Position numbers and translations under genes: made by a program
Shown: in pieces, positions 1-5,808 of the stretch
Layout of the letters: every line of letters starts with the position of its first letter
Numbering within the stretch: position 1 is the first letter of the stretch
IMG/VR virus record: IMGVR_UViG_2548876695_000016
DNA length: 5,808 bases
Direction: 5' to 3' (one strand)
Source of the DNA: a virus
Lineage: Duplodnaviria; Heunggongvirae; Uroviricota; Caudoviricetes
The notes under the pieces: generated by a model
What the model was told of the DNA's origin: nothing
What the model saw: the letters and a program-made list of their open reading frames with translations, nothing else
Database searches by the model: none

Positions 1-92
1 GGCTGCCAGCCCTCTTTCAGTTTGTGTGTCAGCTTTTCCGCAAGGTCTGACGGCGACGCCGCCCTGACAACATCGTAATGTTTAATCGACAT
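1..92 (-). CDS. Small phage protein, N-terminal fragment (runs off the window at position 1); possibly DUF1737-like protein preceding the lysis cassette
   Basis: Minus-strand ATG at 92-90 with GGGAGA Shine-Dalgarno about 7 nt upstream; open frame reads MSIKHYDVVRAASPSDLAEKLTHKLKEGWQ to the window edge. Not in the ORF track because it is truncated. Family resemblance is from memory only. Confidence 0.5.
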   Translation of the reverse strand, partial: MSIKHYDVVRAASPSDLAEKLTHKLKEGWQ

Positions 93-178
93 CGAATTTC
101 TCCCGTGTAGAGGAACAGAGTTAAAAAGCCGGAAGCGGAATCAAATCACAGGATGACCATCTGCCAGTGGCAGGTCAT

Positions 179-205
179 AAAAAAAAGGCTGCGCAATGCG
201 CAGCC
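179..205 (-). terminator. Rho-independent terminator on the minus strand
   Basis: Minus-strand RNA would form an 8-bp GC-rich stem (GGCUGCGC / GCGCAGCC, plus coords 187-194 and 198-205) with a 3-nt loop, immediately followed by U8 (plus-strand A8 at 179-186). About 85 nt upstream of the left-edge gene start. Confidence 0.85.
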
Positions 206-634
206 AGAACTCACAAGGAAAATGATAAAAGGAATAACACTAGTGATGTACGCATGGCGCCTCCCGCTAAGTTCTGCAATGATCAAACAGAACTCGCTAC
301 GTGCCCTTAAAACTCGATCATTTAGCCCCTCCAAGGAGGATTCACCATGCGGTTGATTTTTTAATAAACAGTAAACAAAAAAGTCAAGAATTATGCATTC
401 TGTTCTTTCATCATCGGCCACAGCAATACCACAATGCCGCAGACCAGAGCGCCATCAGTCAGTACCAACATTATCCTGCTGGTGAAATCCATCATCACCA
501 TCACTAAAAGCAGGATCACAACAGCAAGCAGACACAGTTTATAAAACAATGTTCAGAAAACGCATTCAGCATGCCTAAGGTTCTATTCCTACGAATAGCC
601 AACTTGCAACTTAAAATATTATTTATGCAGCCAA

Positions 635-1393
635 TTAAATTCTGGTCCTTACAATATCAACCTGAAGATTCTTATCTTGTGCTGATTGATAAATGACAAA
701 CCTTTTACTACCTGCATTGAAAGAAGTAGACAAAACCAGACAATTATCATAACGAGCAAGAACATAATACCAACCATCATTATAATTAATCATTTCATAT
801 TCTTTCTTAAACTGTGGTTTGTAATATCCTGTCAGAAATGAAAAAAGCCAAAAATATGCCACAAAAGCAATCATCACAATCTCAAAAAAATGTTTTTTTA
901 TAAATGGCTTATCATAGAAGCATGATACCGATAAAAATCGCCCATAAGATCTTATCGAAATTGTAACCGCCAGCGCAATCGCTGCTGACAGTAGCAAAAG
1001 AGGTACCTGAATCTTCTGTCTCAATATAGAAAACTCAATAATTGCCGGCACAAACAATAATTCCACAGCAAAATAAAGGCGAAATACATTTAGCTCTTGC
1101 ATAGAATGTTTTCTTTTCACTGCGAAAAAGAATACAACACCAATACCCCAACCGATAAGAAATATAGCAATGACGATAACTGCAAAAAATAAACTTCTGG
1201 CAACATCATCAACACCTGCACCTACAATCCACCATGGGAAGCCGTAGTAAAAAGAAGTACCCCATCCATAGAAATAAGCACTCCCCCATCCAAGGCATCC
1301 CATGTAGGCAATAAAAAGTGAAGAACTCCTGAGCAGCGCACCATCCTTCATAACCACCCCAATACAAGATGATAACATTGGCTTACAACTCAT
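635..1393 (-). CDS. Hypothetical polytopic membrane protein (cargo gene, unknown function)
   Basis: 252-codon ORF with no competing long ORF in other frames; visibly AT-rich relative to flanking phage genes. About five hydrophobic helices (approx. residues 25-59, 67-91, 102-123, 129-147, 166-189), basic loops (KRKH, KKH), then a ~60-aa Tyr-rich hydrophilic C-terminal domain. First ATG at 1393 has no clear SD; in-frame ATGs at 1378 and 1351 (the latter preceded by GGGGTGG) are alternative starts. Confidence 0.7.
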   Translation of the reverse strand: MSCKPMLSSCIGVVMKDGALLRSSSLFIAYMGCLGWGSAYFYGWGTSFYYGFPWWIVGAGVDDVARSLFFAVIVIAIFLIGWGIGVVFFFAVKRKHSMQELNVFRLYFAVELLFVPAIIEFSILRQKIQVPLLLLSAAIALAVTISIRSYGRFLSVSCFYDKPFIKKHFFEIVMIAFVAYFWLFSFLTGYYKPQFKKEYEMINYNDGWYYVLARYDNCLVLSTSFNAGSKRFVIYQSAQDKNLQVDIVRTRI

Positions 1394-1490
1394 AACAAAA
1401 GCAATTCAATGCCGTCAAGAGGTTACAGGCTAAAAAAACTCTATTACATAGCAGCCAGCATGTTTACCGTACAAGTACAACTCAGGGCAT

Positions 1491-1514
1491 AAAAAAAACC
1501 CACTCGGCAGCGGG
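1491..1514 (-). terminator. Intrinsic terminator just downstream of the Q-like gene (candidate tR')
   Basis: Minus-strand RNA CCCGCUGCCGAGUGGG forms a 6-bp stem (including one G-U pair) with a GCCG loop, followed directly by U8 (plus-strand A8 at 1491-1498). The plus-strand equivalent has an A-C mismatch, so it is orientation-specific. Confidence 0.55.
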
Positions 1515-1550
1515 TTTATACATTTTTTACAACATACCAAATTTGCATGA

Positions 1551-1579
1551 AGTATATGGCTTTTAATCCAGTTTTGCAA
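1551..1579 (-). promoter_or_regulatory. Candidate sigma70 late promoter (pR'-like) overlapping the 3' end of the Q-like gene
   Basis: Minus strand: -35 TTGCAA (1579-1574), 17-nt spacer, -10 TATACT (1556-1551). Predicted start near 1544 gives a ~50-nt transcript ending at the 1491-1514 terminator; the initial transcribed region contains -10-like elements (TATGTT, TGTATAAA) of the kind that induce sigma-dependent pausing at Q-utilisation sites. Confidence 0.4.
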
Positions 1580-2336
1580 TATTTTGCTGTAAAAATGCTG
1601 CCTTTTGTTTTGAACGTGTTCTCGTCACAAGCAATAAAGCATCACTATCAAGCTGTAGAAAAATGTGCTTCATTGCAACCCAGCGTTCAGTAAATGTCTC
1701 GGACCAGTTTTTTGTTGTCACTCCCACCAATGATGCCAGTGTCTGGTATTCATAGGCCTCACGCCCTGCAAGTTCGCTCTTCACATCCTGTGCAGCCAGC
1801 CAGATTAACGTCTTCAGGCGATCCAGTGTCTTACCTGCAATTTTTCTGTTACTTAACAAATCTTTAAACTCGCTCCATGCCCATTGCGTTATGGTGACCT
1901 GATGCCCCCATCGAACGCTTTCGCTGTAACACCAAAGCAACCATGCTTTCTGATGTTCATCGAGAGACAAAACCGCGCGGCGCCATGAAGAGGTTGAGAA
2001 TTCAACCGGGCTGACCAAAGCAATGGATGAACCTTTTGCGTACGACTGCTTACCGGAAGTCGGCGTATTATCCAGCGTAATCATCTTGCCAGTTACCACA
2101 TCCAGAATGCGCGGCTTCTTTCGTTTGTATGTACCAGTATCAAATTGTGCATGCTCCTGCCAGGCTTCGAGCTGGCCTTTCGTTGCTCCGTTCAAGTCAG
2201 CAGTAGCTGCCATAAGTTGCTCACGAACATACTGTAAATATTGGGTATTCATGCAGTAAATCCTTTCTATATTTTGGCATAATTCTTCAACATTCGGTAA
2301 TCGTTCAAAACCGAATCGGGGAAACGACATAAGCAC
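1563..2336 (-). CDS. Putative late-gene antitermination protein Q (non-lambda Q family)
   Basis: 257-aa ORF (track start is GTG at 2336; an ATG at 2330 gives 255 aa) in the Q position downstream of nin genes, followed at once by a promoter-like element and terminator. It replaces a lambda-type Q whose 5' remnant lies at 3813-3902. Family assignment is by position and recalled size of ~250-aa Q proteins, not sequence comparison. Confidence 0.6.
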   Translation of the reverse strand: MLMSFPRFGFERLPNVEELCQNIERIYCMNTQYLQYVREQLMAATADLNGATKGQLEAWQEHAQFDTGTYKRKKPRILDVVTGKMITLDNTPTSGKQSYAKGSSIALVSPVEFSTSSWRRAVLSLDEHQKAWLLWCYSESVRWGHQVTITQWAWSEFKDLLSNRKIAGKTLDRLKTLIWLAAQDVKSELAGREAYEYQTLASLVGVTTKNWSETFTERWVAMKHIFLQLDSDALLLVTRTRSKQKAAFLQQNIAKLD

Positions 2337-2727
2337 AGGAGCCCCCAGCGACAGCGAAGGAGTTCTGATATATAAGACTCAGACATCATTCATTCCCCGG
2401 TTCTCCAATATCTGTTTCACTCATCATCCATAACTACCTGTAATTGCCCCCCTTTTTTTTGTAACAGTTCTTATATTGCTATATAGAATAGCCATTACTA
2501 ATGCATTTAAATTTAATAAAATAAAAATTATAAAAAACATAAAACACCACGTAAACACACTTAATAAAAACACCGTTACATTAAAAGATAATAAAAACCG
2601 CAATAAAAAACGAATAAATCAATTGTCTCACGCAATTATAAAACATCATATTGATTACGCACCTTGTATTACAAACTCATGTATGTAAAATACGCGCACC
2701 ATTCAAAAAAAAGGAAGACAATAACAT

Positions 2728-3687
2728 ATGAAAAAAAGTGTCATCGCTGGCGTCTTTATTGCTCTGTCATTTACCACGTGTTCAGCTATCGCGAACAGCC
2801 TTGCATTATCATTAGCAAATGATGATGCAGGGAAGTTTCAACCAATACTTAATGATATTTATGGCAATAAACATGAAAACAGAGATGATTACTCACAAGG
2901 CTTATTTCTGGGATATAGCCACGATATCTCAGACTCGAGCCAATTATCTCTCCATATTGCGCAAGATATTTACTCTCCATCAGGCAGTAATAAAAGACAC
3001 AACACAGCTGTAACTGGAGACAGAGCTTTTAGTGCATACACTCACACTGGTATTGAATGGAACTCCCTTGCGAATGACTGGATTCGCTATCGATTAGGTA
3101 CTGACATAGGTGTTGTTGGCCCCGACGCAGGCGGTCAGAAAGTACAAAATAAAGCTCATGAGATTATTGGGGCAGAAAAATATCATGCATGGGATGATCA
3201 AATAGAGAATCGCTACGGTTATACTGTAAAAGGGATGCTATCCATGACACCAAGTATGGATATTTTAGGTGCTAATGTTGGATTATACCCTGAAGTTTCT
3301 GCTGTTACTGGAAACTTATTTCAATATGTAGCATATGGCGCAACCATTGCCATTGGTAATGATAAAACCTTCAATTCGGATAATGGCTTTGGTCTGCTGG
3401 CTCCCCGTGGTTTAATGCATATGTCCGATACAAGCGGATTCAAATACAAGATTTTTGCAGGTATGGAAAGACGAGATGTCAATCGCAACTATACTCTCGA
3501 AGGAAAAACAATACAGACGAAACAAACAACAGTATCGCTAAACAAAACTGTTGATGAATATCAAGTTGGCGCAACAATTGGGTATGCACCTGTAGCCTTC
3601 ACACTAGCATTTAATAAAGTAACATCAGAATTCAAGACAGGGGATGACTATTCATTTATAAATGGAGCAATCACCTTCTTTTTTTAA
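2728..3687 (+). CDS. lpxR: Lipid A 3'-O-deacylase LpxR family outer-membrane beta-barrel protein
   Basis: 319 aa with AGGAAG Shine-Dalgarno upstream of ATG 2728; N-terminal signal peptide MKKSVIAGVFIALSFTTCSAIA; C-terminal FFF typical of outer-membrane barrels. With cleavage after AIA, mature Asn9-Asp10 (codons at 2818-2823) and His122 (3157-3159) coincide with the LpxR catalytic residues as I recall them; position 34 is Ser where I recall Thr. Length matches the 319-aa Salmonella LpxR precursor. AT-rich gene and flanks. Confidence 0.85.
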   Translation: MKKSVIAGVFIALSFTTCSAIANSLALSLANDDAGKFQPILNDIYGNKHENRDDYSQGLFLGYSHDISDSSQLSLHIAQDIYSPSGSNKRHNTAVTGDRAFSAYTHTGIEWNSLANDWIRYRLGTDIGVVGPDAGGQKVQNKAHEIIGAEKYHAWDDQIENRYGYTVKGMLSMTPSMDILGANVGLYPEVSAVTGNLFQYVAYGATIAIGNDKTFNSDNGFGLLAPRGLMHMSDTSGFKYKIFAGMERRDVNRNYTLEGKTIQTKQTTVSLNKTVDEYQVGATIGYAPVAFTLAFNKVTSEFKTGDDYSFINGAITFFF

Positions 3688-3812
3688 CTGAATTGAATTC
3701 AATCAAAATAACATAAGTCCAACAAAAACATAAAGTGCGAAATGAATGCCAGCTCCATTTATTTCGCACTATAAAAGATTAAAAGTTGCAATAAAATAAT
3801 AAAATGACTCAG

Positions 3813-3902
3813 TTACGAAAACCAATAAACTGTGGCCAGTAGTGAGTCGCTCATCATCGGGCTTTTTGGCGAATGAAATTTAGCTACGCTTTCGAGTCTC
3901 AT
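3813..3902 (-). pseudogene. 5' remnant of a lambda-type Q antiterminator gene (29 codons then stop)
   Basis: Minus-strand ATG at 3902-3900 overlaps the phosphatase stop (ATGA) and reads [29 protein letters not shown]. The first 20 residues equal the lambda Q N-terminus as I recall it ([25 protein letters not shown]...); similarity decays over codons 21-27 and the frame terminates. Confidence 0.75.
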
Positions 3903-4564
3903 GCGCCTTCTCCCTGTACCTGAATCAATGTGAGGTTTCCGCAGAACACTGCGCCAGTATCGATATACATCTGGTTGGCAAATTTGAGTGGTTTCACTGC
4001 TGGCGTATGACCAAAGATGAACGTGTCCGCGCCTTTGATTTCTTTCACGATCCCGTCTTGTGAGTTGCTGATTCGTTCGCGGTTCCAGATTACCTGCTGA
4101 TGATCAACTGGCTTTCCAAACTCGTATTTATCACAAGGATAATCGGCGTGGCAAATGACATATTTTTTATCTTTGCTCACCAGTTCGATGATTAACGGAA
4201 GTTCTTCTGCTTTATGGGCAAGAACTTTAGCCAGAGTCTCTTTGTCGTAATCGAGATTAAAGAACCAGCCACCGCCATTAAGCAGCCAGTGATTAACGTT
4301 TCCACGCTCTGATAAGCCATCAATCATCATTTGCTCATGGTTTCCACGCACAGCTCTGAACCAGGGGAATGTGATTAATTCCAGACATTCGACGTTCTCT
4401 GTACCGCGATCAACCAAATCGCCAACCGAGATGAGCAGGTCTTTTTTGGTGTCGAATCCAATCGTATCCAGTTTGTTCATCAGGTTCGTGTAGCATCCGT
4501 GCAGGTCGCCAGCTACCCAAATATTTCGGTATTTGCTGCCATCAATTCTTTCGTAGATATTCAT
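3899..4564 (-). CDS. ninI: Ser/Thr protein phosphatase, lambda phosphatase (NinI / ORF221) homolog
   Basis: 221 aa, near-identical to the recalled lambda phosphatase; metallophosphatase motifs GDLHG, GDLVDRG and GNHE present; start ATG overlaps the ninG stop (ATGA). Confidence 0.93.
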
Positions 4565-5175
4565 GCAGCCTCACTTCTGCTGTTTCGCAGGTCTTTGAGT
4601 TTCTGTTGGTACTCTGCCTTGATCGCCTTGCACTCTTCGACAGTCCAGCGATGGCGGTTATGGTTTGATTCGATTTCGTCTACTGCTTCCTGCCCGATGC
4701 GGCTAATCAGTTCGACGCGATACGGAACGAGATTTCCGCTTTTGTGCTGGTTGCACACCACGCATTGCTTGTGAATATTGCGTTCATCAAATCGGAGTTG
4801 AGGTGCCGCAGCAGTTGTCCGGTAATGTCCGGCATCCCACTGAGCAGACGTGAGCGTTCCGCACGAGATACATGGTAAGTCGCGGTCTCTTTCTCTGATG
4901 AAGGCGTTTACGGCTTGTTGGGCTTGTTTAATCCAGTAACTGCGGGGCTTTAAGGCGAGTTTTCGAATCTTAAGTTTATCTTTCTGTTTCTGCTCCTCTC
5001 GTCGTCGTTTCTTCTCTGCTGCTTTTTCCGCTTTTTCGCGTTCTTTACTTCGTCGTTCGAGTGCTATCTTGGTTCCACACTCTGGAGAGCACCACCACTG
5101 ATTAGCGAATGCAAGGTGAAACCATTCCCGACATTCATCGTTTTTACATCGTCTTCGCGCTGGTTTAGCCATCAT
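4561..5175 (-). CDS. ninG: NinG (Rap) recombination-associated protein
   Basis: 204 aa beginning [19 protein letters not shown] with Cys-rich motifs ([24 protein letters not shown]), matching recalled lambda NinG; start overlaps the ninF 3' end. Confidence 0.92.
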
Positions 5176-5335
5176 CTTCTTCCTCGTGCATCGAGCTATT
5201 CGAATCGCTCATCAGCTCTGCACAGCAGTGCTCACACACGTGAACTTCCAGCACATGCAGCTTCTGACCGCAATTAGCGCACGTTAAAGCCCGCTCGACG
5301 CTTTCTTGTTCGTAACTTCGATTTGGGTCAATCAC
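5165..5335 (-). CDS. ninF: NinF
   Basis: Frame matches recalled lambda NinF (…[26 protein letters not shown]…EEEDDG). I place the start at GTG 5335-5333 ([10 protein letters not shown]…, 56 aa), which overlaps the ninE stop as GTGA and has GAGGAA 7 nt upstream. The track's 70-aa version starting at 5377 would overlap ninE by 46 nt. Confidence 0.85.
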
Positions 5336-5514
5336 CTTGTATTCCTCGCACGATGTCTTAGCCACCGGATATCCCACAGGTGAGCCGTGTAGTTGAAGGT
5401 TTTTACGTCAGATTCTTTTGGGATTGGCTTGCGTTTATTTCTGGAGCGTTTCGTTGGAAGGTATTTGCAGTTTTCGCAGATGATGTCGGTGAAACTTCGT
5501 CGTTGTCGCCTCAT
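5332..5514 (-). CDS. ninE: NinE
   Basis: 60 aa [60 protein letters not shown], matching recalled lambda NinE; AGGAGG Shine-Dalgarno 5 nt upstream of the ATG at 5514. Confidence 0.9.
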
Positions 5515-5808
5515 GTCGCCCTCCTGACGCCCTGCCCGATCGCCATCAATGCCGCTTTGGATACGATAGTAAACATCCGTCGAGGACTAATGAACGGTCG
5601 CCAAATCAGCAGCATGGAGCCTTTGCTGTTTCCCTTCTTCTCCAGCCCTGTCGATGGTTCGATAAAATTAATCCGTCCATCAGTGATAATACGAACTTCG
5701 TCAACACTCTCCAGAGCCTTGCTGAACCATCCGACTGAACCGCCCCGGGAATCCTGGAGACTAAACTCCCTGAGAAAGAGGTAAACAGGATGACTAAAAA
5801 TACACGTT
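5511..5808 (-). CDS. C-terminal fragment of an upstream nin-region gene (truncated by window edge), function unknown
   Basis: Minus-strand frame open across all 298 nt from the window edge, ending …[15 protein letters not shown] with TGA at 5513-5511 overlapping the ninE ATG (ATGA). Not in the ORF track because no start lies inside the window. The plus-strand ORF 5380..5784 covering the same DNA is antisense and likely spurious. Confidence 0.6.

Follow-up and report, generated by a model that had tools for sequence, protein, structure and literature searches.

Gene organization of the window

The window, by which we mean the whole stretch of DNA that was analysed (5,808 nt), is a segment of a lambdoid prophage of the phage 434 type, the minus strand of which corresponds to the phage rightward direction. 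Over positions 1 to 5738, its identity to Escherichia phage 434 (OL657226) is 99.7%, and the stretches of it that were compared with the chromosome of E. coli 2011C-4251 (positions 1400 to 4600) are 100% identical; in this strain the prophage adjoins ybhC. The minus-strand gene order begins with ninE (5514 to 5332), followed by ninF, ninG (5175 to 4561, minus strand), and ninI (3899 to 4564, minus strand), which encodes a serine/threonine phosphatase (metallophosphatase) of 221 aa, has 95% nucleotide identity to lambda, and closes the lambda-like nin region that was retained. After ninI come a 29-codon frame (3902 to 3813, minus strand), which is a pseudogene of Q and is referred to below as the stub; lpxR (2728 to 3687, plus strand), a moron encoding a lipid A 3'-O-deacylase and lying antisense to the phage early operon; ylcG (2267 to 2389, minus strand), a small gene located ahead of Q in rusA-type lambdoid prophages; and an intact gene for a predicted Q82-family antiterminator of 229 aa (1563 to 2252, minus strand). 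Past the late terminator, the minus strand carries, in this order, a gene for a TfpB-like membrane protein, a gene for a DUF3927 protein, an STnc100-like RNA, and the start of a SASA esterase gene.

The gene ninH, which in lambda lies between ninG and ninI, is missing from the window, and ninG and ninI overlap directly (4555 to 4564); the match to lambda is split at ninG/ninI, with a gap of 190 nt on the lambda side. At the far end of the window (5736 to 5808), the match to phage 434 stops at 5738, and the final ~70 nt are matched by phage 2851, which carries an IS. In 2011C-4251, a Dam methyltransferase gene is truncated by an IS3-family element, and these nucleotides are located at the border of this element or just within it, which indicates that this prophage copy is degraded upstream of ninE.

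At the opposite end, between the DUF3927 and SASA esterase genes, the STnc100-like structured RNA was found at 176 to 380 (minus strand) with a score of 41.4 bits (E 1.3e-6), which falls short of the Rfam gathering score (47), and a strong terminator is located at its end (205 to 187). According to a 2026 preprint, the PasD sRNA, which is structurally related to STnc100, sits between DUF3927 and SASA esterase genes, and Q and LpxR are the conserved neighbours of PasD sRNAs; the RNA at 176 to 380 is probably PasD.

A remnant of a lambda-type Q gene follows ninI

The ATG of the 29-codon frame overlaps the TGA of ninI as ATGA, an overlap that is the same in lambda. In an ungapped comparison, window positions 3902 to 3842 were identical to nucleotides 1 to 61 of lambda Q (J02459, positions 43886 to 43946) at 61 of 61 sites, and residues 1 to 20 of the frame were identical to lambda Q at all 20 positions, with divergence setting in after residue 20 to 24. 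A prior sequence-only reading of this locus had described a minus-strand frame that encodes the first 20 residues of lambda Q, then diverges and stops after 29 codons, and the alignments bear this out in full. The length of 29 codons, the divergence after residue 20 to 24, and the lack of any Pfam match for the frame together identify it as a remnant rather than a functional member of the Q-lambda family, and no full-length PF03589 protein of ~207 aa is present here. We attach a negligible probability to the idea that the similarity arose by chance or from faulty assembly: the identity of 61 of 61 nucleotides and of the first 20 residues excludes chance, the gene overlap is that of lambda, and the same sequence recurs in the independently sequenced virion DNA of phages 434 and 434B as well as in hundreds of complete genomes.

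The similarity to lambda Q fades over a short distance. The transition zone (3841 to 3825, minus strand) agrees with nucleotides 62 to 78 of lambda Q at 12 of 17 positions (binomial P of about 3e-4 against a background of 28%), and beyond nucleotide 78 the identity to lambda Q is 27 to 30%, i.e., background. Megablast carried the match out to window position 3832 (67/69), both against lambda and against dozens of phages with a lambda-type Q. Judged from the alignments, the stretch from 3825 to 3841 can be read in two ways: (i) as patchy microhomology or (ii) as a mutated continuation of the stub. The left joint itself appears to be illegitimate, or at most guided by microhomology (GGCCAC), within the Q coding sequence; it lies inside the Q gene (about nucleotides 61 to 78), unlike the usual joint at a gene boundary. 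Its placement at 3825 to 3842 agrees with the estimate of 3815 to 3840 made beforehand. The further claim that the breakpoint is visible at nucleotide resolution is right in that the breakpoint could be located, and has to be relaxed in that the location is a zone of 18 nt and not a single base.

The fragment has been annotated before. In the phage 434 annotation (OL657226 and OL657227), a 90-nt CDS located between ninI and lpxR, CPT_434_64, is named "antiterminator-like protein" and described as an N-terminal fragment of lambda Q; in the 434 record the downstream gene is labelled "Q82-like" and lpxR is given as a lipid A deacylase. The junction itself is not taken up in the announcement of the 434 genome (Feiss et al. 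2022, PMC9119081). PGAP, in the two RefSeq genomes that were inspected, marks window positions 3831 to 3902 as an "antitermination protein" pseudogene without its C terminus, and among the other full-length matches listed for complete E. coli genomes, nearly all have an "antitermination protein" feature under the match. CPT_434_64 and the frame in the window are the same feature, the window adding an 8-bp tandem duplication outside the frame. This duplication (AATAAAAT present twice, at 3790 to 3805, just outside the 29-codon frame) was found in 54 of 56 prophage and IMG/VR loci, with a single copy in phages 434 and 434B. A search of Rfam gave no match in or near 3813 to 3902.

Delimitation of the replaced block against phage 2B8

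Phage 2B8 (NC_049952), which belongs to the same genus as 434 (Alegriavirus), carries an intact lambda-type Q gene of 207 aa right after ninI, followed by a lambda-like pR', and is devoid of lpxR. A comparison with relatives that lack lpxR had been suggested as the way to define the breakpoint, and 2B8 serves this purpose well: it is 96.6% identical to the window over 3832 to 5522 and 97.4% identical over 1 to 1516, with no match between, from which the swapped block is defined as 1517 to 3831. At both flanks, high identity to 2B8 gives way abruptly to none, the change by which a mosaic joint is recognized. Since homology to 2B8 resumes at 1516, the right end of the block coincides with the late terminator site, a hairpin with a U tract at 1496 to 1517 (minus strand) that is assigned by consensus and pattern matching only and the hairpin of which is common to 2B8. 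The right joint is thus intergenic, falling between the early transcribed region and the terminator, just upstream of the shared late terminator hairpin.

The block is composite and consists of the AT-rich lpxR cassette (about 2404 to 3831), a 14-nt 3' end of rusA, ylcG, and a Q gene of the Q82 family with its own predicted promoter. The proposal that a lambda-type Q had been displaced by a block carrying a different Q is substantiated by this comparison, as 2B8 is collinear with the window on both sides of the block and the incoming Q matches PF06323, which is unrelated to PF03589.

The Q82-type module

Q proteins fall into three families in all, among them Q82 (PF06323) and Q-lambda (PF03589), which share function and genome position and have no detectable sequence similarity (PMC9388147). 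The incoming Q gave a full-length match to PF06323 (E 1.7e-91, profile positions 1 to 216 of 220), and we regard it as a putative Q82-family antiterminator; NCBIfam returned no match for the protein, and no solved structure exists for the Q82 family. The sequence-only reading had put here an intact Q-like gene of 257 aa, with lpxR between it and the orphaned 5' end. The intactness of the gene, the position of lpxR, and the assignment to a Q family all hold, and only the length needs correction: the 257-aa frame (GTG at 2336) is an over-extension into ylcG (2267 to 2336), the Pfam match begins at residue 32, and the phage 434 record and PGAP both start Q at the ATG at 2252, giving 229 aa.

Window positions 2403 to 1530 are 88% identical to prophages with the order rusA-ylcG-Q(PF06323), e.g., that of E. 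coli NH-21, and this homology does not extend beyond the 14 nt that precede the ylcG ATG. What is left of rusA at this point (2390 to 2403, minus strand) is its last 14 nt, 13 of which are identical; they hold the ribosome-binding site of ylcG and form the right junction of the lpxR cassette (rusA'-ylcG sequence, GAACCGGGGAATGAATG). A longer rusA remnant upstream of ylcG was considered and rejected, as translation and alignment are convincing for the last 14 nt only and a TAG 15 codons up closes the frame.

Directly after the Q stop codon, a candidate pR'-like late promoter (TTGCAA, a 17-nt spacer, and TATACT) was found at 1551 to 1579 (minus strand) by consensus matching only. The incoming piece takes in this promoter-like site and roughly the first 15 to 25 transcribed nucleotides, and because a Q-binding element or pause site would lie in these incoming nucleotides, the Q82-type protein and its presumed cognate site may well have moved together. 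The presumption that the block had brought a cognate late promoter agrees with the 88% homology to the rusA-ylcG-Q prophages over 2403 to 1530, a span that takes in the candidate promoter (a consensus match) and the early transcribed region.

Other signals are present in this module. The only perfect CII-type site in the window (TTGCN6TTGC, 1574 to 1587, plus strand) overlaps the -35 element of the late promoter at the 3' end of the Q82-type gene and is annotated as paQ in the 434 record; by itself such a site is not significant, with at least one occurring in 86 of 200 shuffles. A terminator-like hairpin (2159 to 2176, plus strand) lies near the 5' end of the Q gene, in a layout that mirrors lambda PaQ. 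In the late-promoter leader (1487 to 1556, minus strand), a weak STnc240-like match was obtained (28 bits against a gathering score of 55, E 0.45), and this leader may be the counterpart of the lambda 6S RNA in the Q82-type module.

The lpxR cassette

The product of lpxR matches PF09982 (E 6.8e-40) and the Salmonella enzyme in PDB entry 3FID (E 3.6e-153 over residues 24 to 319). The gene is embedded in a cassette of ~1.43 kb (about 2404 to 3831) that is made up of an AT-rich upstream region with 27.5% GC (2404 to 2727, plus strand), which forms the right-hand part of the cassette, lpxR with 39% GC, and a 3' flank with 28% GC and a strong hairpin. Overall, the GC content of the cassette is 35.5%, compared to 45 to 48% in the flanks. 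The absence of lpxR from 2B8 and from the rusA-ylcG-Q prophages, its atypical GC content, and the hairpin mark it as a moron, to which the literature adds Ler-dependent expression: lpxR is placed in the Ler regulon of enterohemorrhagic E. coli (EHEC) by work that cites Ogawa et al. (2018), and it is reported to modify lipid A and to lower the host inflammatory response to EHEC.

As to the origin of lpxR, a scan of genome contigs recovered only a Citrobacter homologue with 73% protein identity, the nucleotide similarity being confined to the CDS, and a copy of lpxR on an E. coli plasmid (81%) covers essentially the CDS only, plus about 46 nt upstream. An origin of the cassette from a transposon or IS was rejected, because a transposase is absent and the cassette ends (2404 and 3831) do not carry terminal inverted repeats.

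An imperfect direct repeat is found near the cassette ends, offset from the joints (TCACTCATCATC at 2417 to 2428 and TCGCTCATCATC at 3847 to 3858; 11 of 12 positions identical), with a spacing of 1430 nt that equals the length of the cassette; one copy lies inside the Q stub (Q nucleotides 45 to 56), and this level of repetition was reached in 8 of 3,000 shuffles in a post hoc comparison. The repeat may be the footprint of microhomology, and no clean model fits it.

Distribution and uniformity of the block

Queries spanning each junction were covered to at least 80% by 618 of 5,426 complete E. coli genomes, and the right-junction region occurs once each in 620 complete E. coli genomes, always at full length. 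The contiguous block is present in phages 434 and 434B and in three annotated E. coli loci (two of them with the stub). The 3' hairpin of lpxR accompanies the contiguous block in all 44 IMG/VR contigs that have it, as far as each contig extends, and the block is likewise contiguous in all ten distinct NCBI contexts of the identical LpxR protein. The left junction could be read in 56 loci (a set that includes one contig ending inside the stub) and was the same junction throughout, the only differences being two point variants (one of which is a missense change located in the post-junction tail) and one difference in the copy number of the 8-bp repeat unit. In none of the 56 loci is the 29-codon frame disrupted; the copies are more than 99% identical, which leaves no power to detect relaxed selection on this frame. 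Both junctions appear to be fixed, and lpxR, which had been said to travel at or with the breakpoint, sits exactly at the joint in every copy examined.

No other context for the cassette flanks turned up in complete E. coli genomes, IMG/VR, the contigs with identical LpxR, phages, or plasmids, and the search for intermediates was negative: no other phage setting had the lpxR cassette, and in no case did the stub abut rusA'-ylcG. The event is old enough to have spread over strains of O157:H7, O103, O111, O121, and O145 and to phage 434, and recent enough for the copies to have kept more than 99% identity.

These data bear on the order of events. One could suppose that lpxR was not part of the removal of Q-lambda and was inserted separately, at a later time, when the Q stub had already been joined to rusA'-ylcG, into this joint. 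Such a course would account for a cassette that stands apart in its composition, that is bounded on both sides by remnants of phage genes, and that has the 11/12 direct repeat near both of its ends at a spacing equal to its own length. We nevertheless consider it unlikely for the following reasons: (i) a stub-ylcG joint free of lpxR was not found, the right-junction region being full length in 620 of 620 genomes, and the whole block is present at every locus with the lpxR 3' hairpin; (ii) the repeat is not a simple target-site duplication, because the homology to Q (nucleotides 57 to 78) continues past it; and (iii) terminal inverted repeats and a transposase are lacking.

Hairpins and predicted transcription across the joint

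In lambda-type phages, the antisense strand of the Q 5' segment forms a hairpin that is followed by CUUUUUGG, and in phage g341c this hairpin is annotated as "probably terminator for PaQ." Its counterpart in the window (3834 to 3869, plus strand) is crippled by two mismatches in the 5' arm, in the junction zone, and the predicted folding energy is -11.4 kcal/mol (z +0.9) in the window versus -27.6 kcal/mol (z -3.3) in lambda. Retention of the stub hairpin as a terminator for lpxR was considered and rejected, as the two mismatches abolish the fold in the window.

The same comparison weighs on the question of whether the stub has been kept for a function. It might encode a small protein, provide ninI with translational coupling or a spacer, or terminate lpxR or antisense transcripts. 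All 56 loci have the frame intact, the ribosome-binding site and start of lambda Q are retained, and the lambda-type segment that the stub derives from possesses a strong hairpin (the probable PaQ terminator of g341c) in the same orientation as lpxR. Set against these points are the broken hairpin, the survival of only 20 of 207 residues with no Pfam match, and the treatment of the frame as a fragment by both PGAP and the 434 annotators, while its lack of variation is accounted for by recent spread of the whole module, the copies of which are more than 99% identical; we therefore regard a retained function as highly improbable. Given that the lambda Q ribosome-binding site and start are preserved, ribosomes probably translate the stub during lytic growth, to give a 29-aa peptide of no use. 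The stub most likely has no role and is a dead remnant, or recombination scar, and not a gene.

Between the stub and lpxR, a strong hairpin (3735 to 3769) with a U-rich tract, together occupying 3720 to 3769 (minus strand), looks like an intrinsic terminator for phage-rightward transcription; the U tract is present on the minus strand only, with none on the lpxR strand. To reach ylcG and Q, N-modified delayed-early transcription from pR would have to cross the stub, this terminator-like hairpin, and the antisense lpxR gene. Because the PaQ-type hairpin is crippled and the lpxR strand of the 3' hairpin has no U tract, it can be proposed that lpxR transcripts run antisense through the stub into ninI-ninG, so that the scar would couple a virulence regulon to the delayed-early and Q82 expression of the prophage. 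This is a speculative proposal to which we give very little credence. If it were true, the read-through could, for example, damp induction while the LEE genes are on, and the stub would be a regulatory junction instead of inert debris.

Probable homologous exchange within the stub

Upstream of the stub lies ninI in some loci and ninH, itself preceded by rusA, in others, and the contexts diverge exactly from the stub ATG. In a four-way alignment, all four combinations of upstream and downstream sequence were found to exist, namely, ninH with the stub and lpxR, ninH with a full Q (HK620), ninI with the stub and lpxR (the window), and ninI with a full Q (lambda); among these four, the shared 61 nt show no difference. 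Since the sequences on the outer sides are non-homologous, we infer, and rather tightly so, at least one homologous exchange within the stub, by which the lpxR-Q82 module would have moved between ninI- and ninH-type nin regions. The stub offers a direct demonstration, in four combinations, that a segment of 61 nt can serve as a crossover site for a virulence module.

Module replacement as the probable origin of the stub

Taking these lines of evidence together, we consider it very probable that the lambda-type Q stub is the scar of a module replacement in which a composite block of 2.3 kb came to occupy the place of the Q-lambda module. The ancestor would have resembled 2B8, with the order ninG-ninI-Q(lambda type)-pR'(lambda type)-terminator-late genes. 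It would have lost the region from about Q codon 21 to 26 through pR' and the Q-loading region and gained the 2.3-kb block, which, read rightward, would consist of the reversed AT-rich lpxR cassette with its 3'-end hairpin, the last 14 nt of rusA, ylcG, and the Q82-family Q gene, and would end with the late promoter and early transcribed region belonging to the Q82 type, placed immediately ahead of the resident late terminator. The scar could have persisted because antitermination would be supplied by the incoming Q82-type gene. The lpxR cassette might have arrived with the Q82 module, before it, or after it.

What the scar records is a change in a lambdoid lineage, from a late switch of the Q-lambda type to one of the Q82 type, with lpxR gained at the same place; the lineage comprises the classical phage 434 and a prophage carried by about 11% of complete E. 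coli genomes. As had been asserted, this is lambdoid mosaicism, and a textbook case of it. The scar is real, but the mosaicism is ordinary and the fragment had already been annotated in 434 and in RefSeq E. coli genomes; as a clean case of a mosaic joint within a gene, the scar is useful for teaching, and it leaves current understanding unchanged.

Comparison with known systems

Phage 2B8 agrees with the window in its nin region and its late region (TfpB-like membrane protein, DUF3927/TciB, and SASA esterase), at 96 to 97% identity, and differs from it in having an intact 207-aa Q of the lambda type and a lambda-like pR' in place of the series stub-lpxR-ylcG-Q82-pR'. The rusA-ylcG-Q prophages, on the other hand, resemble the window in their Q gene of the Q82 family (in the window, a full-length match to PF06323, with a promoter-like and a terminator-like site after it), and differ in rusA, of which the window keeps only the last 14 nt.

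Morons of lambdoid phages, a concept of Juhala and Hendrix, are typically extra genes without a copy in close relatives, with lower GC content, an upstream region of their own, a hairpin, and an orientation that allows expression from the repressed prophage, and lpxR is alike in all of these respects. Such genes usually lie cleanly between two intact genes, whereas lpxR lies at the joint between two gene remnants.

In phage 434B, the region of Q, the late promoter, and lysis has been replaced by a segment of the DLP12 cryptic prophage (Feiss et al. 2022, PMC9119081). In 434B as in the window, the late-control module (Q, late promoter, and downstream genes) was swapped wholesale for a non-homologous lambdoid analogue, but the exchange in 434B was a homologous crossover inside ylcG (codons 34 to 39) that left no orphan fragment, whereas the joint in the window falls inside Q and leaves the stub. 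The qsr'/p4 substitution of lambda is a further case in which the late-control module was exchanged for a non-homologous lambdoid analogue.
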